A stretch of 55,621 nt of DNA, from IMG/VR virus record IMGVR_UViG_3300033153_013781, positions 1 to 55,621 of that record, one strand, 5' to 3'. A program made the translations under genes and the position numbers. This DNA is from a virus. Lineage: Duplodnaviria > Caudoviricetes. The notes under the pieces are model-generated. The model ran no database searches. It was not told where the DNA came from and saw nothing but the letters and a program-made list of their open reading frames with translations. This document shows, one piece after another, positions 1,910 to 25,563 of the stretch (within the stretch, counting starts at the first letter, position 1; the number at the start of each line of letters is the position of its first letter).

Positions 1910-1910
1910 G

Positions 1911-5089: not shown

Positions 5090-5093
5090 AGTA

Positions 5094-5195: not shown

Positions 5196-5209
5196 GCCTA
5201 AAATTACAC

Positions 5210-8372: not shown

Positions 8373-8451
8373 ACATGTATTTGCTCCACAAAAAAGCAAA
8401 AACCTGTTTTGTGTCCTTGACTATTTTAGGAAATTATGGTAGATTAGAACC

Positions 8452-8685: not shown

Positions 8686-8686
8686 T

Positions 8687-8761
8687 TCTGGGAGAGAGGA
8701 TTCGAACCTCTGACTTCCTGGTTCCGGGCCAGGTACTCTAACCGGACTGAGCTACACCCAG
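8687..8761 (-). tRNA. tRNA-Pro(CGG)
   Basis: CTGGGTG..CTCCCAG A; loop CC-CGG-AA. Confidence 0.9.
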
Positions 8762-8825
8762 TATGTGCGATGACGAGGATGTCATCGCAGAAATGCCAAT
8801 TCGTGCAAATTGACATATGGCAGGT

Positions 8826-9203
8826 TTACCACCACAAACCCCTGAAATTTTTGCCAAAAAGAGTCAAACCTTCCTGAAGTTTCTTGTAATAGATTTTCAC
8901 TTCTTCGTCTGTTAAATCATCAGGATGAATAAAGTCTCCGCCATTACTTTTGGCAATTTGCTCCATAGACCAAATCATCTTGTTGACCATTCGACACCAT
9001 TCTGCATTTCTTCCACAATTTGAACAATCATCGCGGAATTCGTTTTCGTGAAATCTTTTGAGACGTGGAGCTACAAATTTTGCTATTGTGAATTCGAGAC
9101 TGAAAGTATCTTCATCGATGAATCCTTGTTTGTGTCGTTGCTTCCATTCGCGCCAGAATGTTCGAGTAAAGATTCGTGGACGGTAAAAAGTAATCTTAAT
9201 CAT
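8826..9203 (-). CDS. hypothetical phage protein
   Basis: AGGAG RBS; ends GLTLFGKNFRGLWW. Confidence 0.75.
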   Translation of the reverse strand: MIKITFYRPRIFTRTFWREWKQRHKQGFIDEDTFSLEFTIAKFVAPRLKRFHENEFRDDCSNCGRNAEWCRMVNKMIWSMEQIAKSNGGDFIHPDDLTDEEVKIYYKKLQEGLTLFGKNFRGLWW

Positions 9204-9277
9204 GTTATTCTCCTACACAGCGTTGTTGCTGCTCAGAAAATTGTCATTCGATACATATTATTCTCCTTCTTATTAAA

Positions 9278-9352
9278 TCGGGATGAGAAGATTTGAACTT
9301 CCGCTCTCATGTTCCCCGAACATGCGCTTTTACCAGACTAAGCTACACCCCG
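9278..9352 (-). tRNA. tRNA-Pro(GGG)
   Basis: CGGGGTG..CATCCCG A; loop TC-GGG-GA. Confidence 0.9.
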
Positions 9353-9355
9353 TAA

Positions 9356-9428
9356 TACCCTGGACGAGACTCGAACTCGCATTCTCCACCTTGAAGAGTG
9401 GCGACTTAACCAATTTGTCCACCAGGGC
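9356..9428 (-). tRNA. Glu-like tRNA with a 6-nt anticodon loop
   Basis: GCCCTGG..CCAGGGT A; CCACT-CTTCAA-GGTGG. Confidence 0.7.
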
Positions 9429-9433
9429 AAAAC

Positions 9434-9505
9434 TACCCCATGCGAGTATCGATCTCGCTTCTTCTGCCTGAAAAACAGAAATCATAGCCAGTAGACCAAT
9501 GGGGC
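9434..9505 (-). tRNA. tRNA-Glu(TTC)
   Basis: GCCCCAT..ATGGGGT A; TCTGT-TTTTCAG-GCAGA; atypical T loop ATCGATA. Confidence 0.75.
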
Positions 9506-9511
9506 TTAAAT

Positions 9512-9730
9512 AAACATCGCGAAAGTTCTTGTTGCAAGGAATAAACGTAGAGCTCTATCCAATTGAGCTACAGCGGCGTAGTGCCACCGTGGGTATCCGA
9601 CTCTCCGAATATTTATGGATATGCCGTATTCCTGGTGGCGAAATAGAAAAGCCGCTGACAGGACTCGAACCTGTAACCTCTGGTTTAAAAGACCAATTGT
9701 TTGTATGCACCAAATGTAGGTCGCGATGTC
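9512..9730 (-). ncRNA. circularly permuted tRNA-Lys(TTT)-like / YrlA-like RNA
   Basis: 3' half (9650-9694) precedes 5' half (9549-9577); ends pair ACATCGCGA/TCGCGATGT. Confidence 0.85.
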
Positions 9731-9733
9731 TAA

Positions 9734-9804
9734 AGCGTCCGACGAGAATCGAACTCGTATTTTAACGTTGGCAACGTTATGTAATACCACTATACCACGG
9801 ACGC
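9734..9804 (-). tRNA. tRNA-Gly(GCC)
   Basis: GCGTCCG..CGGACGC T; TAACG-TTGCCAA-CGTTA. Confidence 0.9.
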
Positions 9805-9810
9805 ATATAA

Positions 9811-9971
9811 AACATCGCAAAAGTTTTTAATGCTGAAATAAACTATGCGCTCTGCCAATTGAGCTATCTCCCGTGAAAACCGATTGTCGTAATCGGGAGA
9901 ACAGGATTCGAACCTATATCACATCCTCCGAATGGAATTGTTTGTATGCATTAACCATTGGTTGCGATGTC
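9811..9971 (-). ncRNA. second circularly permuted tRNA-like / YrlA-like RNA (Pro-type acceptor)
   Basis: 3' half (9893-9936) precedes 5' half (9846-9873); ends pair ACATCGCAA/TTGCGATGT. Confidence 0.85.
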
Positions 9972-10685
9972 TTAAATTATTTTATATTTTTTTGCCCATT
10001 TTCGAATAGTATTATCAGAAACTCCGTATTTCCGACCGATAGCACACCATGAAGAACTCTTTATCATCTTAGCCAAAGCTTGCTTTGATGGACGATCAAC
10101 TTTGCGAAAACGGCTGTTATCTATTCTAAAACATTTGTGACACATTCCAGTTTTTGCTTTACGGGATACTTCTCCATTACATTTTTTGCATTTGATCGGA
10201 GGTCTTTTATTTGCTCTTCCTGCGAATGTCGATTGTTGACTATTACAATTTGGACATAATAATCGTAAATTTTCTATTCTGTTGTCGTCTCTTGTTCCAT
10301 TTATATGGTCTAATACTAAAACTAACAATTTCCCTTTCCATATCGGTTTTTGACAACATGTTGAGCATATGTTCTTCAGAATGTTGTCATTTATAAGCCT
10401 TGTTTTTAAATGACCACGATCAAAGGTGGAATTTTTAACTAGCAATTGTTCGAGAGGCATTTTCTCTTTAGGAAATTTTCTACCTTTTACAGAAATTAAA
10501 ATATGAGAGAAATCAATTTTATCATCTGCGAGTCTCTTTTTTAAACTCCTAAATCGGCTTCCGCCATTCGAAGGACACAACCCTAGTTCAATAAGAATTT
10601 GGGAATATGTTTTGCTTCTTTTGACTGCTTCTTTCAAATGTTGTTTTGATATTGTCCATATTGGACTAGTTTTTATTTTATTCAT
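9972..10685 (-). CDS. HNH endonuclease with C-terminal HTH
   Basis: LDHINGTRDDNRIENLRLLCPNC; SWCAIGRKYGVSDNTIRKW. Confidence 0.9.
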   Translation of the reverse strand: MNKIKTSPIWTISKQHLKEAVKRSKTYSQILIELGLCPSNGGSRFRSLKKRLADDKIDFSHILISVKGRKFPKEKMPLEQLLVKNSTFDRGHLKTRLINDNILKNICSTCCQKPIWKGKLLVLVLDHINGTRDDNRIENLRLLCPNCNSQQSTFAGRANKRPPIKCKKCNGEVSRKAKTGMCHKCFRIDNSRFRKVDRPSKQALAKMIKSSSWCAIGRKYGVSDNTIRKWAKKYKII

Positions 10686-10767
10686 ATGTTCTCCAATAAT
10701 GATTATACATTACTTAGAGACCACACTGGTAACACTCCTTTTTTATTTTTTGGAGTTCTGCCACTAA

Positions 10768-10838
10768 AGCATCTAGCGGGATTTGCACCCGCGCCGTCAC
10801 TTTGGAAGAGTGAAATGCAACTACTACACTATAGACGC
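10768..10838 (-). tRNA. tRNA-Gly(TCC)
   Basis: GCGTCTA..TAGATGC T; TCACT-CTTCCAA-AGTGA. Confidence 0.85.
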
Positions 10839-10921
10839 ATAACGCACCCATTATACAATATCGCATAATGGGTGCGATTGTAGACATCCTAAATTAAACC
10901 CTATTCAATTTTTTATAACCG

Positions 10922-10997
10922 TTGTTTTGACCTTTTTGTTGACGTCAACAAAATGGTGTTAACCATTTTCCTGATGCCAGGAATATGGTCAAAACAA
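10922..10997. repeat. branched palindrome (two hairpins inside a terminal inverted repeat)
   Basis: TTGTTTTGACC..GGTCAAAACAA encloses TTTTGTTGACGTCAACAAAA and ACCATTTTCCTG..CAGGAATATGGT. Confidence 0.7.
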
Positions 10998-11040
10998 ATT
11001 AATGTCCACAGAGTCTTGCCGTAGCTCACTGCTTCTTCGG

Positions 11041-11238
11041 TTATCCTACTTTTGTTACTACCTTAACCACAGCTTTATAAATACCGTAGTAAGGACCTAA
11101 ATCTTTAGTTAATTGATCCAAATCTTCTTGTGCTTCTGATTTAGTCCAATGCATTTTCATGTTAATAGTTTTTTCAATGCCCGGAATTTTTTTATCTTTC
11201 CGATTGGTCATAATCAAAAAAACTTCTGTATCTTTCAT
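11041..11238 (-). CDS. hypothetical protein
   Basis: Start MKDTEVF with GGAG RBS after tRNA-His. Confidence 0.6.
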   Translation of the reverse strand: MKDTEVFLIMTNRKDKKIPGIEKTINMKMHWTKSEAQEDLDQLTKDLGPYYGIYKAVVKVVTKVG

Positions 11239-11249
11239 AATTACTCCAA

Positions 11250-11322
11250 TCCCGGCAGTGGGATTCGAACCCATCTCTTACTGTTCCACAGACAGTCGTG
11301 CTTCCATTTACACCTTACCGGG
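11250..11322 (-). tRNA. tRNA with His(GTG) anticodon
   Basis: CCCGGTA..TGCCGGG A; ACTGT-CTGTGGA-ACAGT. Confidence 0.85.
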
Positions 11323-11637
11323 TTTTCTTAGATGTCCCTCGTCCCTCGTTAACATCGCCCATAATTCTAATTCAAGTTCAATAGCATCTTGAATCGGTTG
11401 AGGTATTTTAAGTTCTCTATTTACAAACGTTTCCTTCATACGTCGCAGATTAAATTTCAGTGAATCTATCGGTGTCATTCCCGGTGAATTCCCAATCGTT
11501 CTCATAATATTTGCAATTCGTTCTATTCCTTCTTTCGTACAACAAATCTTCAAATAGAGCCATTCAGAATATTCCGGACTCGTAATACGACGAGGTCTTT
11601 TTGTTTTTGCAAATACTTTTTTAATTTCTTCAATCAT
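11308..11637 (-). CDS. hypothetical protein (stop inside tRNA-His)
   Basis: 109 aa ORF between tRNAs. Confidence 0.6.
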   Translation of the reverse strand: MIEEIKKVFAKTKRPRRITSPEYSEWLYLKICCTKEGIERIANIMRTIGNSPGMTPIDSLKFNLRRMKETFVNRELKIPQPIQDAIELELELWAMLTRDEGHLRKPGKV

Positions 11638-11639
11638 AA

Positions 11640-11714
11640 TCGTGACGGAGGGATTCGAACCCGTCTGCCTCTCGCTTATGAAACGAGCGCTCTAACCAAT
11701 TGAGCTACGTCACG
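11640..11714 (-). tRNA. tRNA(CAT), elongator Met or Ile2
   Basis: CGTGACG..CGTCACG A; CTCGT-TTCATAA-GCGAG; no initiator features. Confidence 0.85.
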
Positions 11715-11744
11715 TCAAACCGCTGAGCGTTACTCTTGTCGGAT

Positions 11745-11816
11745 TCCACCCTTATCCATAAGTTTGACCCGATACGGATTACACCAAGCAACTCGGGTCA
11801 ACGTTACTTGGAAGTG
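11745..11816 (-). ncRNA. candidate kissing-loop RNA element
   Basis: Two hairpins whose loops TTGACCCGA and TCGGGTCAA are complementary. Confidence 0.55.
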
Positions 11817-11827
11817 CTAACACTAAA

Positions 11828-11898
11828 AGCCTCCTGAGAGAATCGAACTCTCGTCCGCTGTTTACAAAACAGCAATTCTTCCATTGAACCAAGGAGGC
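11828..11898 (-). tRNA. tRNA-Thr(TGT)
   Basis: GCCTCCT..AGGAGGC T; GCTGT-TTTGTAA-ACAGC. Confidence 0.9.
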
Positions 11899-11942
11899 AC
11901 GATGGATACCCGAAAGTACCCAAAGCGATCCGGCAAACAAAA

Positions 11943-12020
11943 TGTAGTGAACGGGTGACGATCCCGCGTCTTCAGGGTCCGTCACCCTGATGATTTCTCC
12001 AAACCGTAATCTACCACCAC
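11943..12020 (-). tRNA. atypical tRNA (loop centre ACG, Arg?)
   Basis: GTGGTGG..TCACTAC A; 6-bp stem TCAGGG-TGACGGA-CCCTGA; T loop ATCGTCA. Confidence 0.6.
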
Positions 12021-12084
12021 AAATAGAGGTCCCGATTATTTCAACCCATTCAGCCGCTCGGGACCACACAGCTTCCGGAGTATC

Positions 12085-12109
12085 TGGAATCATAGAGAAT
12101 CGAACTCTA
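12085..12109 (-). pseudogene. tRNA 3' fragment
   Basis: TAGAG-TTCGATT-CTCTA-TGATTCC-A with no 5' half adjacent. Confidence 0.6.
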
Positions 12110-12110
12110 G

Positions 12111-12329
12111 TTAATTTTTCGTTGTCTCTTTGGTAACTTTATCAACCCAATGGCTACACCCATCATCTATTTTTACAAGAGGACGCTCCCAAGTCGAGTA
12201 AGTATTCTTCACTCGACCTTGATGTTCTACCGAAACAGGAGGATTTAGATAACACACATGTTTCCCTGCGCTCGTTGTTGTTTTCTCTTCTTCTATCTTC
12301 ATGTATTGACAATTTTCACATTTGTTCAT
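12111..12329 (-). CDS. small Cys-containing protein
   Basis: CENC..CYLNPP..RPLV..DGCSHW; AGGA RBS. Confidence 0.7.
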   Translation of the reverse strand: MNKCENCQYMKIEEEKTTTSAGKHVCYLNPPVSVEHQGRVKNTYSTWERPLVKIDDGCSHWVDKVTKETTKN

Positions 12330-12339
12330 AACAATTTCC

Positions 12340-12927
12340 TTATGTTAATTCCTTAATTTTGTTCCGTGGAGTTAAGACTTTGTAATCAAATATCCATACT
12401 CCATTCACTTTTTTCAGATGCCTAACAGCGTGACAACTGTAACAAACTACTTCTAAGTTAGACATTTTATTGTTTTTTCTATTACCATCTTTATGGTGAA
12501 CTACAAGTTTATATTTTTTCTTTTCGCAACATCCGACACATCCTTTTAAGAACTTTTTTTTGCATTTTTCTCGATATGAATATTCTCCATATCCGGTTCC
12601 ATAATGTGCGGGCTGTATTGCTTTGCAATCTCCTTCTAAACTTTGAGCAAAATCCTTACATTTTCTGCCACAAAAATAAACTCCATGTTTTGAATTTTTA
12701 AGTTTTGAAGGAGTTATTTGCTTGCTCTTTTTGCAAATCTCACATTTTACAATTACTTTGTTTTGTTTCGCTTTAGCAGCACATGCTGTGGTGCAGTATC
12801 TCTTTTTTCCGTATCCTGGATTCGGCTTAAGTCTACGAATAAATTCAATATTACAAATTCCACAATTTGCTTTTTCTCCTTTTCTTTTATGTCCGTCGTT
12901 CTCGCAAAAAAATACTATTTCATTCAT
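12340..12927 (-). CDS. HNH endonuclease with Zn fingers
   Basis: VHHKDGNRKNNKMSNLEVVCYSCH. Confidence 0.9.
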   Translation of the reverse strand: MNEIVFFCENDGHKRKGEKANCGICNIEFIRRLKPNPGYGKKRYCTTACAAKAKQNKVIVKCEICKKSKQITPSKLKNSKHGVYFCGRKCKDFAQSLEGDCKAIQPAHYGTGYGEYSYREKCKKKFLKGCVGCCEKKKYKLVVHHKDGNRKNNKMSNLEVVCYSCHAVRHLKKVNGVWIFDYKVLTPRNKIKELT

Positions 12928-13009
12928 AATGAATCCCCTAATAATCTATTAGAAGATTCGTTTAAATTTTGGAAGACTCCTCTTTTGCTCCAAAGATTTT
13001 ATATTCCAC

Positions 13010-13081
13010 TGGAAATATTCGGGTACGATCCGAAAATTTTGCCGTGCAAGGGCAATGTGATCCCAATTTCACCATATCCCC
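13010..13081 (-). tRNA. tRNA-Ala(TGC)
   Basis: GGGGATA..TATTTCC A; TTGCC-CTTGCAC-GGCAA. Confidence 0.8.
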
Positions 13082-13085
13082 TTAA

Positions 13086-13134
13086 CCCGCAGTTCGAGAC
13101 CGTCTTGACCTGACCTGCGGGGACATCAGTCTCG
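13086..13134 (-). ncRNA. candidate pseudoknot with HDV-like topology
   Basis: CGAGACT/GGTCTCG, CCCGCAG/CTGCGGG and GTC/GAC nested pairings. Confidence 0.5.
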
Positions 13135-13151
13135 GGACGGAAATTTGTTAT

Positions 13152-13349
13152 TCATTCTTCCTTTGAAAGCCGTGCAGCTCTTTCATTTTCTCGCATAATG
13201 GTTTCATACACTTCCTTGCGATGAACCGATATGTTTTTTGGAGCATTGATGCCGATACGAACTTTATCACCTCGTATATCGACTATCTTTATTTCGATAT
13301 TATCTCCAATCATAATTGTTTCTTCACGTTCTCTTGACAATACTAACAT
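13152..13349 (-). CDS. csrA: carbon storage regulator CsrA
   Basis: [34 protein letters not shown]. Confidence 0.97.
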
Positions 13350-13361
13350 TTTTGAATCCTT

Positions 13362-13565
13362 TCATTTTTCTGGCTCTTCCTTGAAAGCCTTGACTGCACT
13401 TTCGATCTTCTGAACGAAAGCGTTATGACATTTTGCACAAAGAAGACCTTTCCAGAGTCCTTTGTCCAGTATTAAATCACATTTCCAAACGAGTTCGAAA
13501 AAATTGATGAATCGCTTGGTTTTTGATGCTTTTAATGCTATGCCACATTTAGAACACTTGCTCAT
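13362..13565 (-). CDS. small Zn-binding hypothetical protein
   Basis: CSKC..CAKCH; GAAGG RBS. Confidence 0.65.
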   Translation of the reverse strand: MSKCSKCGIALKASKTKRFINFFELVWKCDLILDKGLWKGLLCAKCHNAFVQKIESAVKAFKEEPEK

Positions 13566-13581
13566 TGGTCTTGTCCTTCGA

Positions 13582-14301
13582 CTAAATTATTTCATACTGT
13601 CGTGCCCATTTTCGAACGGCGTTGTCAGAAACTCCAAATTTACGACCAATGGCACACCAAGATTCTTCATCTATCATTTTTTTAAGCTGTTCCTTTGACG
13701 GTCTTTTGCATTTTCTCTTACTAATACTACAGCATTCTGGAGAGCAGTATCTAACAGAATGATATTTAGGCAAAAAAGTTTTTTTACAGTGAATGCATTT
13801 TTTCTTAACAATCTTATTTTGTTTTTCGCATTTTTTCAATGTTAACTCGCGATCTTTTGCATATGGTTTGTCATGAACTTCTGCATGACAATTTTGACAA
13901 AGCAAATCGCATTTATCAACTTCTTTCTTTACCACTTTCCACGATCTACAATGTCCATATCTGGAGATTGTAAAATCTTTTTGTTTTGGATCTCTGTGAT
14001 GGAATGCATATGCCCCAGGAACAGGTTTGTCATAACCGCACAAAATGCATTTGCCACCTTTATAAGCAAAAAGTTTAAGTTTCTGTTTTCTTCTCCATTT
14101 TGTTACACTTATTACCCATCGTTTTCTTTTGCGTTTTAATTTTTCCTCATTAGTATTGTCATCATTCAAAGCGGAACGAGTATTGTGCTTATTGAATGGA
14201 GAACAATCTAAGCAAAATTTTCGCTTTTGAAGGTTCCTGATTTTTCCGTCAATTTCAATCTTGTTCTTAAAATCTTTACTGCATTTTTTGCATGTTGGCA
14301 T
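13582..14301 (-). CDS. HNH endonuclease with C-terminal HTH
   Basis: FHHRDP..CDLLCQNCHAEVH; SWCAIGRKFGVSDNAVRKW; start MPTCKK. Confidence 0.9.
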   Translation of the reverse strand: MPTCKKCSKDFKNKIEIDGKIRNLQKRKFCLDCSPFNKHNTRSALNDDNTNEEKLKRKRKRWVISVTKWRRKQKLKLFAYKGGKCILCGYDKPVPGAYAFHHRDPKQKDFTISRYGHCRSWKVVKKEVDKCDLLCQNCHAEVHDKPYAKDRELTLKKCEKQNKIVKKKCIHCKKTFLPKYHSVRYCSPECCSISKRKCKRPSKEQLKKMIDEESWCAIGRKFGVSDNAVRKWARQYEII

Positions 14302-14367
14302 ATGTATACCCCTTTCAGGGTTACATACGTCGAACTGTAGTCTAAAACCTTTAACAAAATTGTTAAC

Positions 14368-14455
14368 CTCCAAGGGCTGGATTCGAACCAGCGATGGGAC
14401 TTGCGTCACGCCTGATTAACAGTCAGGTGCCTGCTACCAACTCGGCTACCTTGGA
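14368..14455 (-). tRNA. tRNA-Asn(GTT) with long variable arm
   Basis: TCCAAGG..CCTTGGA G; CCTGA-CTGTTAA-TCAGG; 18-nt variable region with GAC-GCAA-GTC. Confidence 0.85.
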
Positions 14456-14470
14456 TTAAGGGATTAATCT

Positions 14471-14490
14471 CTATTTAATTTTCAAAGAAC
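14471..14490 (-). promoter_or_regulatory. boxA-like antitermination site
   Basis: GTTCTTTGAAAATTAAATAG; similar copies at 15847, 16408, 17149 (-) and 20931 (+). Confidence 0.6.
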
Positions 14491-14500
14491 TATCAATTTG

Positions 14501-14540
14501 ATGGAAGAATTCGAACCTCCACCAATTGAACTATCTCGGA
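14501..14540 (-). pseudogene. internally deleted tRNA remnant
   Basis: TCCGAGA-TA-GTTC-AATTGGT fused to GGAGG-TTCGAAT-TCTTC. Confidence 0.5.
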
Positions 14541-14562
14541 TCATATTTACTTTTCAAAAAAC

Positions 14563-14796
14563 TTAATAGCCTAAAAAGTTAGCTATTTTCTTTTTGGTTC
14601 GTTCTGCTTTTCTTAATATTTCTCGCAACTCCCAGTCTGGTACAATTTTTACATTTTTTATGTTGTGCCATTCTGTTGAACCGTCATATATTCGTTCAGT
14701 TAGAATCAGATGTTCTTGTTGTTCTGAATATTTTTTTGCAAGAAATAAATCAGATCCATCACCATTAACTCTACAAATCGATCCGATTTCTATCAT
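14563..14796 (-). CDS. hypothetical protein
   Basis: 77 aa ORF with AAGGA RBS. Confidence 0.65.
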   Translation of the reverse strand: MIEIGSICRVNGDGSDLFLAKKYSEQQEHLILTERIYDGSTEWHNIKNVKIVPDWELREILRKAERTKKKIANFLGY

Positions 14797-14815
14797 GATC
14801 TATCCTTAATAAAAA

Positions 14816-15099
14816 ATTCGTTACCGTCGCTATCACGGTCTACGGGCTCCGACGCGATTAAGCTTTAGCCCGCGTGCTTCCACTTCCTAACTTTCATATT
14901 CAGCATTGAGTCTTGTGAACTTGAGCCTGTCCAGACTTTCTTCTGGCTCACGGTTTTTTTAAAGCATAATCGCATGTTGCTCTTCTTAAGTTCTCGCCAC
15001 TATTTCGCAAATATTAATCGGTCATCTATCAATGATACATGACGTACTAATATTGCTTTTCCTGAATATATACTCGCTTCGGCATTACACTATAACGAA
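14816..15099 (-). ncRNA. 284-nt tRNA-framed structured RNA
   Basis: Acceptor TTCGTTA/TAACGAA; D stem GTGT/GCAC around a ~200-nt insert; 15/16-bp long-range pairing. Confidence 0.75.
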
Positions 15100-15101
15100 A
15101 A

Positions 15102-15176
15102 TCCGGGAGAGAGGACTCGAACCTCCAACCTCAGGCTTCCAGAGCCCGCCGTCTAGCCAATTGACATTACACCCGG
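15102..15176 (-). tRNA. tRNA-Pro(TGG)
   Basis: CCGGGTG..CTCCCGG A; CGGGC-TCTGGAA-GCCTG. Confidence 0.85.
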
Positions 15177-15179
15177 TTA

Positions 15180-15198
15180 TCGGAGTGACAGGATTTAA
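15180..15198 (-). pseudogene. tRNA-Pro 3' fragment
   Basis: AAATCCTGT-CACTCCG-A. Confidence 0.55.
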
Positions 15199-15242
15199 TA
15201 ATTATTAAAAGGAATCCATCACGATTTTTCCTAAAGTACTAT

Positions 15243-15854
15243 ATGCAAAAAATACAATGCTTTCAATGTAAGAATAATTTCATTCCCAATAAAGATCATA
15301 AATATGATCACAAAACAAGAGGAATGCGTCGTTCATTTTGCACTCAAAAGTGCTACAGAGCCGCTCAAGATAGTCGAACCATTATTTCTTGTGCTAATTG
15401 CGGAAACAAAAAATCAATTACTGCCTCAGATCGTCGTCAATCCAAAAGTGGTCGATCTTTCTGCAACAAATCTTGTGCCGCTACTTACAACAATAAGCTG
15501 AAAAGAAAAGTTCGCAGATCAAAATGCGAAATAGCTCTATTTCAAATGCTCACTGATGCATTCCCAAAAATTACCGTCCTTCCTAACAACAAAACTATGC
15601 TTGATGGCTATGAAGTTGATATTGCTGTCCCTTCAATAAAATTAGCTATTGAGTGGAATGGAATAGTCCACTTTAAGCCTATCTACGGACAAATGAAACT
15701 TAATAAGATTCAACAGCGAGATGCTGAGAAACAAAAAATTGCATCAAATAAAGGAATAAATCTTATCATTATTTCTGATCTTGTTTCTACTCAAACTCGT
15801 GTTAATGAAGCTTTTGTAGAAATTCAAAAAATCATTAAGCAACTTACTATTTAA
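15243..15854 (+). CDS. Zn-finger + PD-(D/E)XK (Vsr/DUF559-like) endonuclease
   Basis: YEVDIAVPSIKLAIEWNGIVH..RDAEK; N-terminal CxxC..FCxxxC repeats. Confidence 0.8.
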   Translation: MQKIQCFQCKNNFIPNKDHKYDHKTRGMRRSFCTQKCYRAAQDSRTIISCANCGNKKSITASDRRQSKSGRSFCNKSCAATYNNKLKRKVRRSKCEIALFQMLTDAFPKITVLPNNKTMLDGYEVDIAVPSIKLAIEWNGIVHFKPIYGQMKLNKIQQRDAEKQKIASNKGINLIIISDLVSTQTRVNEAFVEIQKIIKQLTI

Positions 15855-15868
15855 TTTTCAAATAACAC

Positions 15869-15943
15869 TCCGGGAGGAGAGATTTGAACTCTCAGTCTCA
15901 GCGTCCCAAACGCTGCGGATTAACCAGATTTTCCTATACTCCG
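15869..15943 (-). tRNA. chimeric tRNA-Pro(TGG) with mispaired acceptor stem
   Basis: CAGCG-TTTGGGA-CGCTG intact, but 5' CGGAGTA pairs poorly with 3' CTCCCGG. Confidence 0.65.
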
Positions 15944-16317
15944 TATCTTTCTTCCCAATGCAATATTCTGTGACATTTGCAACAGAGTGTTTCACACTTA
16001 GATATTTCCTTCTTGATTTTATCTATTGACATTCCTCTGCGTGAGGCATCTGCAATAGTAAAATCTTTTTCTCCTTTGTTATGGTGAAAATCCAGAACTC
16101 TAAAATCGTCTTCGCCACACTTTTTGCATATTAATTCTTTTTTGAATTCATTCAACCATATCCTAATTTTACGCCGTCTTATATTTTTCGTCTCTTGATA
16201 GCATTTTTGGCATTTCCATCTTCGATATTCTTTGCCTTTGACAATATTGGCTATCTCAAATTTCTTTATCGGACATCTGGTATTACAATACTTGCAAATT
16301 CTTGTTTTTGGTTCCAT
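15934..16317 (-). CDS. HNH endonuclease
   Basis: CKKCGEDDFRVLDFHH..CETLCCKCHRILH. Confidence 0.9.
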   Translation of the reverse strand: MEPKTRICKYCNTRCPIKKFEIANIVKGKEYRRWKCQKCYQETKNIRRRKIRIWLNEFKKELICKKCGEDDFRVLDFHHNKGEKDFTIADASRRGMSIDKIKKEISKCETLCCKCHRILHWEERYGV

Positions 16318-16424
16318 TGAAATTTACCTCCAATAGAATATTCCAAAACAATCACCTGTTCTCCTTTGGGATACCAGATCGTTTCCCCAAACATTTTTAT
16401 TTCCACATATTTGATTTTCAAAGA

Positions 16425-16452
16425 GCGGATTACCAAATTTTCCTACACCCGG
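16425..16452 (-). pseudogene. tRNA-Pro 5' fragment
   Basis: CCGGGTG-TA-GGAAAATTTGGTAATCC-GC. Confidence 0.65.
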
Positions 16453-16682
16453 TTTATTTTCTTTCTTCCTACATGCCAACCATTACAAAACCGACATCTA
16501 TAATGCTCCAATGAGTTTCTTGTGCTTTCCTTTGCATTCATTTCTTTTGCTGCTCTAATTGCAGAAGATTCTTTTGGATACATAATTTTTATTTCACAAG
16601 AATAATGCCAATCGATTATGGAGGTATATTTAATAATACATCGATAAATAAATTCCCATAACCATCGCATTTTCATTCTCAA
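16443..16682 (-). CDS. hypothetical protein (YRCxxCxGWHVG)
   Basis: Zn-ribbon-like C-terminus. Confidence 0.7.
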   Translation of the reverse strand: MRMKMRWLWEFIYRCIIKYTSIIDWHYSCEIKIMYPKESSAIRAAKEMNAKESTRNSLEHYRCRFCNGWHVGRKKINRV

Positions 16683-16755
16683 TAGGCTGAGTGGGACTCG
16701 AACCCACGATTTCTTCCTTATCAGGGAAGCGATTTTGCCACTAATCTACCAGCCC
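16683..16755 (-). tRNA. tRNA-Ile(GAT)
   Basis: GGGCTGG..TCAGCCT A; CTTCC-CTGATAA-GGAAG. Confidence 0.9.
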
Positions 16756-16972
16756 TCTTTTTTACTATCACTGTCACTGCTAATGGTTGTTCATTTTCAT
16801 CAACATCGATACAGATTTCTCCCCAGTCTTCGATGTAAGCCAATTTTGTATGATGTGCTTCACCGATTTCAACTGGTTTAAATTCTGCATCATAAATCAT
16901 AAGCATAGAGTCATCGTTACCTTTTATTTCGGTAACAAATGATTTTGTATTATTAGTTATCATTTTGCACAT
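16721..16972 (-). CDS. hypothetical protein (stop inside tRNA-Ile)
   Basis: GAGG RBS before MCKM; reads into the tRNA up to a TGA in the anticodon loop. Confidence 0.55.
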   Translation of the reverse strand: MCKMITNNTKSFVTEIKGNDDSMLMIYDAEFKPVEIGEAHHTKLAYIEDWGEICIDVDENEQPLAVTVIVKKRAGRLVAKSLP

Positions 16973-16986
16973 TTTATTTACCTCAA

Positions 16987-17057
16987 TAACCCTGGCGAGA
17001 TTCGAACTCACACTAAAATCTTCGCAGGATCTCGTGCTTCCATTACACTACAGGGTT
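16987..17057 (-). tRNA. tRNA-Arg(GCG)
   Basis: AACCCTG..CAGGGTT A; AGATC-CTGCGAA-GATTT. Confidence 0.85.
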
Positions 17058-17061
17058 CTAA

Positions 17062-17135
17062 TGGGCGAGGTGGGACTCGAACCCACATAACACCTCCGTG
17101 TAAGAGAGGCACTTGGCCAATTAAGTTACACGCCC
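17062..17135 (-). tRNA. tRNA-Val(TAC)
   Basis: GGGCGTG..CTCGCCC A; CCTCT-CTTACAC-GGAGG. Confidence 0.9.
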
Positions 17136-17181
17136 TATTCTACACTACCTATGAAATTGTCAAAAAGCAAGGTTAATCCAT

Positions 17182-17227
17182 AAAAAAAGCCCCATGAATC
17201 CGTTGTCGGACTCATGGGGCTTTTTTT
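17182..17227 (-). terminator. intrinsic terminator / attenuator hairpin
   Basis: GCCCCATGAGTCCG-ACAA-CGGATTCATGGGGC followed by T7. Confidence 0.9.
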
Positions 17228-17241
17228 GTCTTTCGACAGCC

Positions 17242-17370
17242 TTACAAGTCCGCACCTCCTGGCACGTTGCCTGTATTTTCGCTCATAGGCGCAATACGGG
17301 CTGCGGGGGATACTGTGGTCCCTTGATGCCGTTGCGATTGTGAGTTTGACTGTCTATTATTGATGAACAT
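17242..17370 (-). CDS. 42-aa leader peptide of the tRNA operon attenuator
   Basis: Own translation MFINNRQSNSQSQRHQGTTVSPAARIAPMSENTGNVPGGADL; AAGGA RBS; 3' end complementary to the terminator stem. Confidence 0.8.
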   Translation of the reverse strand: MFINNRQSNSQSQRHQGTTVSPAARIAPMSENTGNVPGGADL

Positions 17371-17423
17371 TATATTTCCTTAAATTTCGGCTCAAAAATA
17401 CGTTAATTTGAGCTTGTTTTAGA

Positions 17424-17451
17424 AGTATACGATATTATACCGTAATGTCAA
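17424..17451 (-). promoter_or_regulatory. sigma70-type promoter of the tRNA operon
   Basis: TTGACA-N16-TATACT. Confidence 0.75.
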
Positions 17452-18598: not shown

Positions 18599-19630
18599 AT
18601 GAAACGACGCAGGTTGGTTGCAGGTGAAGAAGTTATTTTAATATTTGACATACAAGCTGGATTTATTCAGCAGTCTGCTAAATTTCAAGAATACCGTAGT
18701 ATAATCTATAATGAGAGAAAACATGAAATTCCGGTTTTCAAACGCAAGCATGACGAGATCACTGGATTGGAATGTTTTTGGATTAAGCCTTCAGATATAG
18801 ATGATGATGCTCGTATTGAACAAATTCAACGAGATCTGATTGAATTGCAATTGAAGGCATTTGAAGTGGGACAAATAACGAGTTCCAAAGTACCAGAAAA
18901 GATACGCGATAAAGAGATTCGTCAAATGGCAAATAAACATACAAAATTTAGAGATAAACTGATTGATAAATTAGGCTATGATCCACTTGATTATTCATGG
19001 GTGGAACGAGAATTGGCAGAAACGCCTATTGAACGTCTTTGGTTTAAATTCCAAAGAGAGCGAAAAGGTAGCTTTGATGACAATTGGGAGCTTACTGTAA
19101 GACACTTCCAAGATGCTCATCATAAGGTAGTAACTCCTGAAGATGCATTTGATCTTTCACGCAAATGGAAACGATATTTGATTGGTGCATGGAATACTAT
19201 AGCGGCTCAAAATGCTAATATAGAAGATTGGAAAACGGCTGCTAAACGATTTGAGAAATATCATCGTGAGATTGAGACTCGCATGATGGAATGGAGCATG
19301 AAATACCAGGAAAAATATCCCCTCGCTAAAGTCAAATCTCCTGTTAATTTTCAGCATGGTCCTTATTTTAATGAGTGCATAGAAAGAGTTCCAAAGCTTT
19401 TTACAGATGCAACGTGTTTTCGATTGCGTGAAGATGTAGTATTGGAAGTAGTGTCTTACGATCCAAAATTACGATATATAAGACTCGATTTTACTTCTGA
19501 TATTCGCGAAAAAATCAAACCAGGCATTCCTCAGAATGACCCTTGGCGACCGATGAGAGCAGATTATATTATATATGTTCCTCCTGAAAAAATTGATGAA
19601 CAATTAGAATTTTTAGGATCGCTTGATTAG
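18599..19630 (+). CDS. hypothetical protein
   Basis: 343 aa ORF. Confidence 0.8.
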   Translation: MKRRRLVAGEEVILIFDIQAGFIQQSAKFQEYRSIIYNERKHEIPVFKRKHDEITGLECFWIKPSDIDDDARIEQIQRDLIELQLKAFEVGQITSSKVPEKIRDKEIRQMANKHTKFRDKLIDKLGYDPLDYSWVERELAETPIERLWFKFQRERKGSFDDNWELTVRHFQDAHHKVVTPEDAFDLSRKWKRYLIGAWNTIAAQNANIEDWKTAAKRFEKYHREIETRMMEWSMKYQEKYPLAKVKSPVNFQHGPYFNECIERVPKLFTDATCFRLREDVVLEVVSYDPKLRYIRLDFTSDIREKIKPGIPQNDPWRPMRADYIIYVPPEKIDEQLEFLGSLD

Positions 19631-20160: not shown

Positions 20161-20196
20161 TCTTGCAAATTATTTTTAAAAAATCCAGGAATCTGC

Positions 20197-20225
20197 TTGA
20201 CATTTGTGGTATAATGAAGTATAAA
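20197..20225 (+). promoter_or_regulatory. sigma70-type promoter
   Basis: TTGACA-N17-TATAAA, also an internal TGnTATAAT. Confidence 0.7.
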
Positions 20226-20290
20226 TTAAACATACGTCATTTTGACGTTTCGGGTGGCTTTCGGGCCATCTACTTTTTTGGAGAAAAATT

Positions 20291-20338
20291 ATGCGTATTA
20301 CCCGAAAATCTATATTTAAGAAAAGGACTCGGGGATAA
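20291..20338 (+). CDS. 15-aa leader peptide of second attenuator
   Basis: MRITRKSIFKKRTRG; GGAG RBS; 3' end complementary to the terminator stem. Confidence 0.7.
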   Translation: MRITRKSIFKKRTRG

Positions 20339-20361
20339 GGTACGCCTACATAAGGAATATC

Positions 20362-20395
20362 AACCCTCGATCACTTAGGTAGTCGAGGGTTTTTT
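20362..20395 (+). terminator. intrinsic terminator / attenuator hairpin
   Basis: AACCCTCGA..TCGAGGGTT followed by a T run. Confidence 0.8.
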
Positions 20396-20401
20396 CGTGT
20401 T

Positions 20402-20608
20402 ATGGGCAAGAAAAAGGCTGAAAAGCTACGAGTAATGATGAAAACAGATGGGTTTTGGACGGTCTGGCGTTTTGAATTCGACGTAACAGACGGACGAGGC
20501 GTGGCTTGGCACAACGCACGTGGTACTGGATCTGAAAATTCAATTGAAAAAAGTACTGGACATTTCATCAAAAAGGGTTATGCTGTAATCCCGTGGGAAG
20601 ACGTGTAA
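20402..20608 (+). CDS. hypothetical protein
   Basis: 68 aa; loosely similar to the next ORF (VM.K..G..DG.V.W..G.G..GY.V.W.D). Confidence 0.65.
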   Translation: MGKKKAEKLRVMMKTDGFWTVWRFEFDVTDGRGVAWHNARGTGSENSIEKSTGHFIKKGYAVIPWEDV

Positions 20609-20621: not shown

Positions 20622-20879
20622 TTGGGAGAAGTAGAAGAAAAGCCTAAAGTTATGATTAAGAGTGAAAATGGACTCCTTCTTATTAAAAGACAAATGAAAA
20701 CTGCTGATGGCGATGTTTGGTGGCAATTTTCAAAAGGTCCTGGCGATGGAAAGGCTGTGCTTCCAGCTTCTAAAATTTTTGAAGAACACGGATATGAAAT
20801 CGTATTATGGGATGATAATCAAATAGCGTCTGATGGTAGTGCAATTTTTACAAACAATGATGAAGGTGAAAAAATCTAA
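20622..20879 (+). CDS. hypothetical protein
   Basis: AAGGAG RBS, TTG start. Confidence 0.65.
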   Translation: MGEVEEKPKVMIKSENGLLLIKRQMKTADGDVWWQFSKGPGDGKAVLPASKIFEEHGYEIVLWDDNQIASDGSAIFTNNDEGEKI

Positions 20880-20904
20880 GGGGGCGTAGCTTAGTGGTTA
20901 AAAG
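20880..20904 (+). pseudogene. tRNA 5' fragment
   Basis: GGGGGCG-TA-GCTT-AGTGGTTAAAAG; complementary to CGCCCCC-A at 21701-21708. Confidence 0.55.
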
Positions 20905-20959
20905 GGACGGTAGGTTTTAATTTTTCGTAGGTTCTTTGATAATTGAATAAAAAAAGAAT

Positions 20960-21265
20960 GGGCTCCTAGCTCAATTGGTTAGAGCAAACGACTCATCTAT
21001 ATGGTGCGTTCATAAGGAAACTTTTGAAATGAACGGGATGAATTCAGGGGAACCTCAGCATGTAATGATGGTGGCAATCCTGAGCCAAGCCTGCGGTACA
21101 CCGCAGGAAGGTGCAGAGACTAGTGGAGAGGTATAGTCCTCTTAATAACCACATTAGCGTCCCGCGTTCTAACGTAAAGTCGAGGATGGTGATATAGTCC
21201 AGCGAGTCAAGAAATTGACATTAAGCTGAATCGTTAGGTTGTGGGTTCGAGTCCCACGGAGCCCA
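20960..21265 (+). tRNA. tRNA-Ile2(CAT) interrupted by a group I intron
   Basis: GGGCTCC..GGAGCCC A; exons join to AACGA-CTCATAA-TCGTT. Confidence 0.9.
20997..21228 (+). mobile_element. group I intron (IC3-like), 232 nt
   Basis: AATCCTGAGCCAAG, GTGCAGAGACT and GATATAGTCC core motifs; exon U pairs with IGS GTG; ends in G. Confidence 0.92.
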
Positions 21266-21551
21266 GTTCTAGTAACTTGTTGTCGAATTCCCAATGGCAA
21301 TTTCGACAGAATAATAGTAAGTTACTGTTAGCGTTGACTTCAGCAATAGTAGCAATTGGAAGGAAATCGGAGATTGGTTTAATGTGACAGGTTTCTACGT
21401 GTTTATTGTAACTACAGTTGAAACATACTTGGGGACGCGATTTTGTCTTCTTGTAAATTAACCTTTGATAAGGAAGTGGGAAAACTTCTAAAAACCTGCT
21501 ATGATCAATGGGTAGCTTATTATCGAAATGAACGAATAGGAATTTATTCAT
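21234..21551 (-). pseudogene. HNH endonuclease remnant
   Basis: CFNC..VETCHIKPIS..NLLLFCRNCHWEFD; N-terminus looks degraded; antisense to the tRNA 3' exon. Confidence 0.65.
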
Positions 21552-21864: not shown

Positions 21865-22386
21865 ATGACGAAGACGAGTTGGCCACCGATTAAAGATGGA
21901 ACGAAGGTTGTTACTACTAAAGCTAATCCCAAGATCGACGATTGGGCTAAGGAAGTAGTGGAAGCTCGTCAATGGGGAGTTAAAGCTATTGTGATCACGC
22001 ATTATGATTCACATGTTCTTAGTTATAAAGTTCGACATGAAGATGGGACTGATGGATATTACGATTCAAGCGAATTGCAGGTGGCTCAAGAAATGATTTT
22101 TATGGGTGCGGGTGAGCATAGCGAAGCTGAATGCAAAAAATTGCATGGAAGACTAGATGTAGGGCTTTCCCTGTTAGGTGGCATGCAGCAAATGGGGAGT
22201 TGCGGTGATGTTTTCGAACCTTGTACTCCTGAAGAGTTTAAGCGGCATATGGCAGAGGAAATGAATCAAGGCCATACAGTGATCATGGCAGTAATTGAAG
22301 ATATTGCTTCAGCTTTAGGAGCTAAAATTCGTCGAGATGATGATGAGATGCGTTTTATTTTGGAAGTGGAAATAAAGAGAGAATAG
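21865..22386 (+). CDS. hypothetical protein
   Basis: 173 aa ORF. Confidence 0.7.
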   Translation: MTKTSWPPIKDGTKVVTTKANPKIDDWAKEVVEARQWGVKAIVITHYDSHVLSYKVRHEDGTDGYYDSSELQVAQEMIFMGAGEHSEAECKKLHGRLDVGLSLLGGMQQMGSCGDVFEPCTPEEFKRHMAEEMNQGHTVIMAVIEDIASALGAKIRRDDDEMRFILEVEIKRE

Positions 22387-22458
22387 GGTCAATGGCGTAA
22401 TGGTTTGCGCGTTCGGTTGAAGCCCGAAAGGTGGCAGGTTCAATTCCTCCTTGGCCCA
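22386..22458 (+). tRNA. tRNA-Phe(GAA)
   Basis: GGGTCAA..TTGGCCC A; TTCGG-TTGAAGC-CCGAA. Confidence 0.85.
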
Positions 22459-22995: not shown

Positions 22996-23228
22996 AATGG
23001 TGTTTTATTATTTAATTGTCGGACTATTGGGATACGTATTGTTATCAAAGAATCAAATAGACTAGGAAAATTGTGACCAGTGATTGGAAAATGTTTTTAT
23101 TCGCATTTGTAATGGTTGCTGTGGTACTCGTTATATCGCGAGATCCAAAAGGAAGAAAATAGAATGAAATATAAACAGAAACAGAAATTTAAACGCTTGT
23201 GATGCGGGCTAAGCTATGCCTGTATTAT

Positions 23229-23303
23229 GGGGGTATAGCTCAGTCTGGTCAGAGCATCGCACTTTTAATGCGAGAGTCGTGAGTTCGAATCTCACTGCCC
23301 CTA
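23229..23303 (+). tRNA. tRNA-Lys(TTT)
   Basis: GGGGGTA..TGCCCCT A; TCGCA-CTTTTAA-TGCGA. Confidence 0.92.
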
Positions 23304-23316
23304 TTAAGGAACAAAA

Positions 23317-24789: not shown

Positions 24790-25563
24790 ATGACTGTTAA
24801 TCAACTTTGGACAAAATATCAAAAGAAACGAACGGACAAGTATCGCAACGATCTTGTTTTGCACTACTCCTTTCTTATTAATTTTTACGTTAATAAAGTA
24901 TCTTGCAAAAATAAACATGTACAAGAAGAAGAATTATCTGGAGCAGCTTATTTGGGTTTAATCGGAGCTGTTGAAGCTTTTGATCCTGAAAGAAAAATAA
25001 AATTTGAAACCTTTTGTAAGCGACGAATTTATGGTGCGATTATAGATTGGTTACGTGAACTGGATTTACAATCTCGAACTGTTCGAATATTTGAAAAAAA
25101 GAAACAACAAGCAGAAGAGAATCTTTCTCACAATGGATATTATGGCGAGACTGATATCGCAGACAAAATGGATATTAACTATAAACGATATAGCATGTTA
25201 AATAAGCTTCTTTTTCACGGGAAAGAAGTTCGTATCAGTGCGTTGCAAAACAATAGTAAGTATGGAACCAATGCCAATTGGGCAGATTCCAATATTTTTG
25301 ATAATTGGGAAACCGAAGATACAAGAGAATCCGATCCTACGTCTTCGACTAATCAATGGCTTCTTAAAGAATTTATAACTGAAAAATTAGGATGTCTTGA
25401 ACGTAAAATTTTGGTTCTTTATTATTTTGAAGGTTTGATTATGCGTGAAATTGCACAAGAATTGGGCTATAGTGAGTCTCGAATTAGTCAGCTACATTCA
25501 GAGGCTATAGTTCGTGTTCGGAGCAATTTGAAAAAGAACGAATTATTGGCAGAAATATTTTGA
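24790..25563 (+). CDS. FliA/WhiG-family sigma factor
   Basis: GLIGAVEAFDPER.IKFETF..RRIYGAIIDWLR; LYYFEGL.MREIAQELGYSESRISQLH. Confidence 0.92.
   Translation: MTVNQLWTKYQKKRTDKYRNDLVLHYSFLINFYVNKVSCKNKHVQEEELSGAAYLGLIGAVEAFDPERKIKFETFCKRRIYGAIIDWLRELDLQSRTVRIFEKKKQQAEENLSHNGYYGETDIADKMDINYKRYSMLNKLLFHGKEVRISALQNNSKYGTNANWADSNIFDNWETEDTRESDPTSSTNQWLLKEFITEKLGCLERKILVLYYFEGLIMREIAQELGYSESRISQLHSEAIVRVRSNLKKNELLAEIF

Follow-up and report, generated by a model that had tools for sequence, protein, structure and literature searches.

A candidate codon-sensing transcription attenuator ahead of a putative phage operon of small proteins and tRNA genes

Locus and leader element

The window analyzed here is the whole of IMG/VR virus record IMGVR_UViG_3300033153_013781, a phage genome fragment of 55,621 bases (estimated to be 40% complete) with two divergent tRNA arrays. 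Between these arrays, on the plus strand at positions 20197-20395, a leader open reading frame (ORF) of 15 codons lies between a promoter and an intrinsic terminator. The leader ORF is conserved in related loci and looks translated, and codons cognate to the downstream tRNAs are enriched specifically in its frame. The end of the ORF has an alternative pairing with the terminator, and the two co-vary. The element is probably a ribosome-mediated transcription attenuator, which would control a phage operon of small proteins and AUA-, UUY- and AAR-reading tRNAs by sensing the speed at which these codons are decoded.

The minus-strand array comprises 20 tRNAs, at positions 31 to 17135. The plus-strand array, beyond position 20900, consists of tRNA-Phe(GAA), tRNA-Lys(TTT) and an intron-split tRNA with a CAT anticodon. 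ARAGORN detected 22 tRNA genes in the window, and Rfam gave 23 tRNA matches and one group I intron. The genes between the arrays comprise a nucleoside deoxyribosyltransferase-like gene, a cysteine-dioxygenase-like gene and two without an assigned function. G+C content in the window is ~35-41%, and the GC skew switches sign near 18 kb. Four DNA sequencing runs from one study contain small shares of this stretch; a look-up returned no RNA run.

A previous sequence-only reading of this DNA had proposed an attenuator at this place. Its promoter, GGAG ribosome-binding site, leader ORF (14 distinct codons), TCGGGG stretch and terminator were all located. The coordinates of the features are collected in Table 1.

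Table 1 Features of the leader element, its sister element and the genes downstream, in window coordinates.
Feature	Position	Strand	Details
Composite promoter	20185-20226	+	CCAGGAAT; TTGACA 20197-20202, GTATAAT 20209-20215, TATAAA(T) 20220-20226
5' untranslated region (UTR) hairpins	20234-20279	+	hairpin 20234-20248; 8-bp UUCG-loop hairpin 20252-20271, then AC, T6 20274-20279
Shine-Dalgarno (SD) sequence GGAG	20280-20283	+	7 nt ahead of ATG
Leader ORF	20291-20338	+	15 codons and TAA 20336-20338; MRITRKSIFKKRTRG
Putative sensor codons	AAA 20306, ATA 20312, TTT 20315, AAG 20318, AAA 20321	+	in leader ORF
P1 helix, 5' strand GCGTAT	20293-20298	+	G of ATG and codons 2-3
P1 helix, 3' strand GTACGC	20340-20345	+	immediately past stop codon
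Segment 1, CCCGA	20301-20305	+	pairs with segment 2 inside leader hairpin
Segment 2	20322-20335	+	includes TCGGGG 20329-20334; alternative partners are segment 1 or terminator 5' arm
Intrinsic terminator	20364-20395	+	5' arm 20364-20373, 3' arm 20379-20389, T6 20390-20395; -17.3 kcal/mol
Two small paralogous protein genes	20402-20608 (68 aa), 20622-20879 (85 aa)	+	first genes past terminator; paralogy E 1e-7
CAT tRNA	exons 20952-20988, 21229-21265	+	group I intron 20989-21228 (240 nt); ends read by eye
tRNA-Phe(GAA)	22386-22458	+	begins on last base of preceding 173-aa ORF
tRNA-Lys(TTT)	23228-23304	+	ARAGORN and Rfam
Sigma factor gene	24790-25563		downstream of plus-strand tRNAs
Sister element	17180-17451	-	same promoter type, 42-codon leader ORF 17370-17242, strong terminator, then tRNA-Val at 17135

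Related loci

Related loci were collected with a marker, a 343-aa protein encoded two genes upstream (18599-19630). It had 57 homologues, some on contigs of >500 kb, and an alignment of 29 homologues yielded 44 metagenome loci, designated by L numbers. At four of these (L004, L008, L010 and L011), the element was recognized by synteny and inspection. A covariance model (CM) built from them and the window retrieved nine further copies at the syntenic place, and the composite promoter motif retrieved another three. The total of complete copies was 17 (16 besides the window), in 9 clusters of ORF-DNA similarity. Left out were three loci cut by contig ends (L016, L022 and L026, the last being the same as L027 as far as it extends) and one in which the promoter motif is followed by only a 2-codon ORF (L030).

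In IMG/VR, protein-based scans found no close relatives, and 14 DNA-pattern matches were all judged to be chance on inspection. The protein-alignment scan of GTDB genomes also found none, and its 2 DNA-pattern matches were both due to chance, one being inside a coding region. GenBank phages matched only in tRNA and intron pieces, covering <=5% of the query.

All 17 copies share the genomic place, the promoter type, an SD-like sequence rich in purines (by eye) that precedes the ATG by 5-10 nt, and the terminator. The leader ORF has 14-25 codons throughout, and its stop codon adjoins conserved post-stop sequence. In the 14 leaders compared by frame, no stop interrupted the ORF frame, vs 9 and 12 stops in the two alternative frames. 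The peptide is only weakly conserved: positions of F, K and I vary among clades, one clade member has Lys where its sisters carry Phe, and all peptides are basic. At L011, the leader ORF forms the in-frame C-terminal end of a ~100-aa ORF (1160-1465), which begins immediately 3' of the promoter and lacks homologues elsewhere among the loci.

Leader codons and downstream tRNAs

The 17 leaders together have 294 codons, start and stop excluded, of which 22 are ATA, 5 ATT or ATC, 34 Phe and 46 Lys. ATA, Phe and Lys codons thus make up 102 of 294 (34.7%), vs 14.5% in a background of 25,427 codons from ORFs of at least 150 aa in 14 of the sources. The preference extends to synonymous codons, with ATA accounting for 22 of the 27 Ile codons in the leaders vs 28% of the Ile codons in genes. 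Comparing leader codons with operon tRNA content across relatives had been suggested as a check on the sequence-only reading, and the enrichment holds in 16 further leaders and 8 further clusters. The ATA/Phe/Lys count was 97/280 without the window, 87/252 without its whole cluster and 53/145 with one leader per cluster and the window excluded. In the ORF core (minus codons 1-3 and the last four), these codons reached 96 of 192, or 50%.

The enrichment depends on the reading frame. In the same 14 leaders, ATA/Phe/Lys codons numbered 81 of 231 in frame, vs 16/217 and 19/217 out of frame. Other codons made up only of A and T were absent or nearly so in frame (AAT 0, TAT 0, TTA 0, ATT 2), so the enrichment is not mere A/T richness. 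Every one of the 17 leaders has at least one ATA, for which the chance is ~0.29 in a single leader and 1.5e-5 when each cluster is represented by one leader; all have Phe and Lys codons as well. The window leader alone gives a marginal signal (5 of 14 codons, p = 0.04); statistical significance comes from the relatives and not from the window by itself.

The tRNAs encoded downstream correspond to these codons. In the window and the 44 loci, ARAGORN detected 34 tRNAs downstream of the marker gene, at 15 loci. On the plus strand were 33 of them, at 14 loci: Lys-TTT (11), Lys-CTT (5), Phe-GAA (7), CAT (5) and Ile-TAT (5). The sole exception was a minus-strand CAT tRNA in L002, and the intron-split CAT tRNA of the window is additional to the 34. 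Upstream of the marker were 111 tRNAs, all on the minus strand, including three for Phe or Lys (L007, L042) and one with a CAT anticodon. A matching downstream tRNA was present in the fetched DNA for 13 of the 17 leaders, and the contigs of the other four end within 0.85 kb. It had also been noted that the central ATA-TTT-AAG-AAA run mirrors the order of the downstream tRNAs. This is true of the window's clade (5 leaders) and does not extend to a general rule.

Promoter and RNA structures

The sequence-only reading pointed out GGTATAAT as shared by both promoters. It stands only 7 nt after TTGACA, so that TATAAT cannot be the -10 of this box. The properly spaced -10 is TATAAA at 20220-20225, behind a spacer of 17 nt. 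A consensus promoter scan did not list the TTGACA/TATAAA pair, the second hexamer of which ends in A. The composite motif, (C)AGGAAT..CTTGACA-N5-7-GTATAAT-N3-4-GTAnnnT, precedes both leader types, in the window and in relatives (L004, L008-L011, L017, L018, L020, L021, L025, L027, L032-L036). An exact motif search of the window found only the copies at 20185-20226 (+) and 17451-17424 (-). The motif could represent two overlapping promoters one helical turn apart, and it is perhaps read by the phage's own sigma factor.

Between promoter and SD, two 5' UTR hairpins have a combined energy of -16.2 kcal/mol, and scans scored the UUCG hairpin with its T6 as terminator-like. Relatives have a 5' UTR hairpin at the equivalent position, and the T-run is found only in the window's clade. 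L004 retains the hairpin at the UUCG position with compensating changes, and its T-run is 3 long.

RNA from 20222 to 20400 folded with -49.1 kcal/mol (z = -2.84 vs shuffles). RNAalifold and single folds paired the start region (ATG-CGT-AC) with the sequence just 3' of the stop. Within this helix, P1, an inner helix joins segments 1 and 2. P1 has 6 pairs, with 94.4% of cells paired and 4 pairs changed on both sides among 12 sequences; the terminator helix has 9 pairs, 7 of them changed on both sides among 12 copies. For P1 and terminator together, the CM-made alignment of 12 copies had 93.8% of cells paired and double changes in 11 of 15 pairs. This covariation was equaled by 0 of 500 shuffles, and slid controls were 31-52% paired. 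An AGG-TACG-CCT hairpin had previously been proposed after the leader; its sequence is present, and it is better read as the 3' strand of P1. The P1 helix also bears on a caveat of the same proposal, that the Arg and Thr codons of the leader lack a cognate tRNA: they are explained as codons 2-3, which form P1.

The terminators of all 17 copies consist of a G+C-rich stem followed directly by 5-8 T. Segment 2, which lies just ahead of the stop codon or spans it, has complementarity to the 5' arm of the terminator, and both sides change together among relatives, as in the pairs TCGAGGG/CCCTCGA, GCTGAGG/CCTCAGC, TCTTGAGG/CCTCAAGA and ATACGGGG/CCCCGTAT. This antiterminator was evaluated by duplex energies with shuffled and non-cognate controls, its stop-relative register shifting between clades and precluding a fixed-column count (a MAFFT alignment of 14 leaders was out of register and was set aside). 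Energies in the family ranged from -10 to -18 kcal/mol. For 11 of the 17 leaders, <=0.6% of shuffles reached a pairing this strong, and in most comparisons cognate partners were superior to non-cognate ones. The duplex in the window (20322-20335 with 20364-20376) had -10.2 to -11.1 kcal/mol. The pairing of TCGGGG with the terminator, doubted as short when it was proposed, is thus weak in the window alone and gains support from its co-variation with the terminator in relatives.

To model the effect of ribosome position, a footprint was masked that extended 15 nt to the 5' side and 12 nt to the 3' side of the first base in the A-site codon, and the RNA was then folded as far as the loop of the terminator. 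A ribosome whose A site was placed on the last ATA gave a predicted pairing probability of the 5' arm with the leader of >=0.5 in 16 of the 17 copies (median 0.82). For a ribosome at the stop codon, the antiterminator probability was <=0.2 in 14 of 17 (median 0.02). It was higher at ATA than at the stop in all 17, and it dropped just past the last ATA, TTT or AAR codons.

Downstream genes

The three downstream tRNAs that the sequence-only reading listed (CAT, Phe and Lys) are present, and they do not follow the terminator directly, two protein genes coming first. The two small proteins had no match in Pfam, PHROGs or ESM Atlas. Their homologues hold the equivalent place in L004, L008, L010 and L011, and the order of leader, 68-aa gene, 85-aa gene and CAT tRNA is conserved in L004, L008 and L010. 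A terminator scan found no strong plus-strand terminator between 20396 and tRNA-Lys. The plus-strand terminator-like sites in 17.7-26 kb were at 20173 (weak), 20274, 20390 and 24301 (weak). In relatives, gaps between ORFs and tRNAs are 0-35 nt. Promoter-like sites between the leader and the tRNAs all had 9 of 12 matches, and across the scanned region such sites occurred at about the shuffled frequency (41 found, 37.6 expected).

The CAT tRNA was not detected by ARAGORN. Its intron matched RF00028 (94.2 bits, 20984-21221) and splits the tRNA after the anticodon. Read by eye, a T at 20988 precedes the 5' splice site and a G at 21228 ends the intron, as is expected of group I introns. Pairing between its first and last acceptor bases and an anticodon loop of CTCATAA make the tRNA look unlike an initiator. 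BLAST neighbors were annotated as tRNA-Met or tRNA-Lys, and there was no E. coli match. Two indirect pointers make it a candidate for an AUA-reading tRNA-Ile2: relatives have Ile-TAT tRNAs in the equivalent array, and the leaders use ATA with almost no internal ATG. The earlier designation Ile2(CAT) stands as to the anticodon, and its Ile2 part is putative.

Several other sequences adjoin this tRNA. An HNH endonuclease ORF (PF13391) at 21234-21551 (-) is antisense to the 3' exon and overlaps it. The 5' exon and the start of the intron are ~77% identical to unannotated stretches of Klebsiella/Escherichia jumbo phages. Directly past the 85-aa gene, the stretch 20881-20915 (+) has the appearance of a tRNA reduced to its 5' third, with acceptor and D arm. 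Judged by eye, it is similar to the CAT tRNAs in related loci, and it may be what is left of a tRNA whose place the intron-bearing copy took.

In L025, L021 and L018, the first gene past the leader encodes a PTH2 peptidyl-tRNA hydrolase (E 1e-7 to 6e-6), and a match in L035 was sub-threshold. The window has no PTH2 gene. The presence of PTH2 would fit a stall-responsive operon. A mini-ORF, ATG NNN TAG with an SD, lies between terminator and PTH2 in L021 (~7958-7970) and L027 (~1466-1478), and its stop overlaps the ATG of PTH2. Two-codon mini-ORFs recall the bar minigenes of phage lambda, which are linked to peptidyl-tRNA hydrolase. In L036, the next gene past the terminator is a tRNA. In L020, a 'tmRNA*' reported by ARAGORN spans three tRNA-Lys genes and is probably an artefact.

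The sister leader

The minus-strand array has its own leader, the sister element, the peptide of which starts with MFINNRQSNS. Its fold has -82.6 kcal/mol (z = -6.3). Sister leaders in relatives have 24-45 codons, the same promoter type, a strong terminator and long nucleotide-conserved stretches. As had been noted before, the sister leader of the window lacks ATA and Lys codons. The proposal that two sensors split the codon table is supported by relatives: the sister leaders are depleted of exactly ATA, Phe and Lys, with 9 such codons (2.1%), including 2 Lys, among the 432 codons of 12 curated ORFs. Their Ile codons are ATT (16), ATC (5) and ATA (1). Curation replaced the longest ORF by the SD-proximal one in 4 of the 12 loci (L008, L017, L018 and L036); uncurated longest ORFs gave 23/497 (4.6%).

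Amino-acid enrichment in the sister leaders follows the tRNA counts of the minus array (Spearman 0.58, p = 0.007). Both leaders are depleted of codons for Leu, Asp, Cys, Tyr and Trp, amino acids for which the sampled arrays encode no tRNA other than one for Trp. The sister stop region is complementary to the terminator 5' arm in most copies. In the antiterminator test, 4 of 12 sister copies were at <=1% of shuffles, the tested segment (to stop +8) being too short for L035, L036 and L033, where the pairing sits just past the stop (by eye).

These patterns would suit a wider scheme, which we put forward tentatively and hold to be somewhat less than an even chance. Large phages of this kind would have separate tRNA regulons, each under a leader written in the codons of its own tRNAs, with closed-loop control codon by codon. 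One leader would cover Ile-AUA, Phe and Lys, and the sister leader most of the other amino acids, with ATT or ATC for Ile. The Ile-AUA/Phe/Lys regulon, which includes PTH2 in several relatives, could then serve as an alarm for loss of tRNA-Lys to an anticodon nuclease or for failed decoding of AUA.

Proposed mechanism and alternative explanations

Under the attenuator reading, transcription would start at ~20232, from the composite promoter, and a ribosome would load at GGAG/ATG and translate the 15-codon leader. If it arrived fast at the stop codon, it would cover segment 2, and the terminator would form and end the transcript. A stall at the central ATA, TTT or AAG/AAA would instead leave the ribosome over segment 1 and segment 2 free. 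Free segment 2 would pair with the 5' arm of the terminator, and the polymerase would read into the small genes and the tRNA genes. New tRNAs would relieve the stall, giving negative feedback on tRNA supply. Stalling, read-through, co-transcription of the tRNAs and the Ile2 identity of the CAT tRNA are the inferred parts of this reading.

A number of points weigh against this reading, some of them concerning the RNA switch itself. Without a ribosome, the equilibrium model favors the antiterminator in 12 of the 17 copies (median 0.76), unlike the trp paradigm; termination would, on this model, need a ribosome that finishes the leader. The hairpin and T6 ahead of the SD (20252-20279) could itself terminate. 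The window antiterminator is weak compared with the terminator (-11.1 vs -17.3 kcal/mol), and 16% of shuffles match its pairing. Five other leaders are also unremarkable, and all six span 6-17% of shuffles. The alignment of 12 copies, being CM-fitted, is biased towards its fitted structure, and the binomial p-values of the codon counts overstate independence because the copies are related.

Others concern the operon. The first genes beyond the terminator code for proteins and not for tRNAs. The CAT tRNA could be a tRNA-Met, and a weak promoter may lie ahead of it. A TTGACA-N17-TAnnnT site is found directly 3' of the terminator in 4 of the 17 copies (L009, L036, L035 and L033), so the tRNAs at these loci need not rely on read-through. 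Several loci with Phe codons in the leader show no downstream tRNA-Phe, although the fetched DNA is limited there. At L037 (5895-10630), neither a leader nor the promoter motif nor a terminator could be recognized in the 4.4 kb that precede its Ile-TAT, Phe, Lys-CTT and Lys-TTT array.

Some of these points would suit a general translation-dependent attenuator, reporting overall ribosome availability or speed (e.g., during host shut-off or stress), with A/U-rich codons that are merely slow or unstructured. The terminator/antiterminator layout requires just some effect of ribosome position, proteins are the first genes to be regulated, and read-through is what the model predicts for a transcript free of ribosomes. 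However, the A/T-only codons AAT, TAT, TTA and ATT are absent or depleted in frame. ATA prevails over ATT/ATC by 22 to 5 here, and ATT/ATC over ATA by 21 to 1 in the sister leaders, and the codon sets of the two leaders track the split of tRNAs between the arrays. We consider this explanation unlikely.

A stand-alone small gene is hard to reconcile with a peptide that is poorly conserved, swapping F, K and I among clades and varying from 14 to 25 codons, and with selection at the level of the codon (ATA). Its product would be either a basic micropeptide or an RNA of ~165 nt that ends at a constitutive terminator. A peptide whose codons require the phage tRNAs would be made only after these had appeared, and would act as a timer, not as a sensor. 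Promoter and terminator do both belong to the element, a separate promoter-like site follows it in 4 of the 17 copies, and all peptides are basic. Yet a plain terminator has no need of a pre-stop stretch that co-varies with its 5' arm, and the P1 helix encloses the ORF, all of which leaves such a gene with a low probability.

Still less probable is a translational switch, in which the 'terminator' hairpin would mask the start of the next gene (ATG 0-27 nt past the T-run) and leader translation would open or close it. In 13 of the 17 copies an ORF start or SD does lie within ~30 nt past the T-run, often without a clear SD of its own, and the G-rich 3' arms could serve as SD. All 17, however, have the G+C-rich stem and 5-8 T of an intrinsic terminator, and the next gene of L036, a tRNA, is not translated. 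That an ordinary promoter and terminator enclose an ORF by chance would suit the marginal window-only enrichment (5/14, p = 0.04) and the 16% of shuffles matching the antiterminator, but it is hardly credible for a frame conserved in 17 of 17 copies, free of stops where the other frames have 9 and 12, and with frame-specific codons.

Comparison with known systems

The trpL, hisL, thrL, ilvL and pheL leaders are enterobacterial leader-peptide attenuators of amino-acid operons. The phage element shares with them an SD-led short ORF with regulatory codons and a terminator whose 5' arm has an alternative partner in the end of the ORF region, and its mix of several codon kinds resembles the multivalent ilv and thr leaders. 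It differs in its target, which comprises tRNA genes and small proteins (PTH2 in relatives), in its proposed signal, which is tRNA supply down to one synonymous codon, and in the extra helix joining the start-codon region to post-stop sequence. In the pheST (pheM) attenuator, a leader with Phe codons likewise acts on part of the translation machinery and not on a biosynthetic enzyme. It is bacterial, concerns a single amino acid and controls phenylalanyl-tRNA synthetase rather than tRNA genes.

T-box riboswitches also respond to the state of a specific tRNA, with a terminator and antiterminator ahead of translation-related genes, but they bind the tRNA directly via a specifier codon and the T-box sequence, without a ribosome. 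In the ermC, cat and ABCF leaders, stalling in a short ORF remodels the RNA and turns on stall-relieving genes, as is proposed here. Those stalls are caused by drugs and depend on the nascent peptide, whereas the phage leader conserves codon identity and not the peptide. The region 20197-20395 had no match to an Rfam leader family, T-box or other family at gathering score or E <= 10. Thr_leader and Phe_leader rows (~20 bits, E 1.4-6.3) appeared only on the sister terminator, far below the gathering score of 55.

The attenuator proposed here would thus be a known mechanism with a new target (tRNA genes) and a new signal (tRNA supply, at synonymous-codon resolution), in a phage. If true, classical attenuation would extend from amino-acid supply to tRNA supply, with a phage gauging the decoding of particular codons and passing the outcome back to the genes of the matching tRNAs, and with two sister sensors discriminating between synonymous codons (ATA vs ATT/ATC). 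It would make directly testable at what time and for what purpose large phages bring their tRNA arrays into play, connect these arrays with peptidyl-tRNA hydrolase and perhaps with defences based on anticodon nucleases, and supply small natural elements for sensing the translation of specific codons. The rule that a leader spells its tRNAs could be used for searching other tRNA-rich phages.

In the literature, pheL is treated as a leader-peptide attenuator in PMC3082878. Phage-encoded tRNAs are treated as codon supplements or as counter-defence in PMC10264068, PMC11555353 and PMC12409363. The terms 'attenuat', 'leader' and 'promoter' had 0 occurrences in PMC10264068. Phage tRNA arrays include tRNA-Lys(UUU), which anticodon nucleases such as PrrC are known to attack. 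In the abstracts and main-text passages covered by full-text literature searches, no leader-peptide attenuation of tRNA genes was reported, and nothing on the regulation of phage tRNA genes was found.

Mobile elements and further tRNA-like sequences

The genome in the window is rich in selfish elements, which lie within 3768-16317 (-), 31693-36165 (+) and 41688-42857 (-). HNH endonuclease genes are interspersed among the tRNAs, and a TnpB/OrfB_IS605 gene is present. A ribonucleotide reductase gene has intein and LAGLIDADG domains, each matched in 2 stretches. The tRNA array also contains a radical-SAM gene and an SNF2-type helicase gene. Two further tRNA-like sequences lie at 9355-9429 (-) and 15872-15942 (-): a gene to which ARAGORN assigned a two-base 'anticodon' (Rfam tRNA, 52.9 bits), and a second Rfam tRNA match, of 41.1 bits, that ARAGORN missed.

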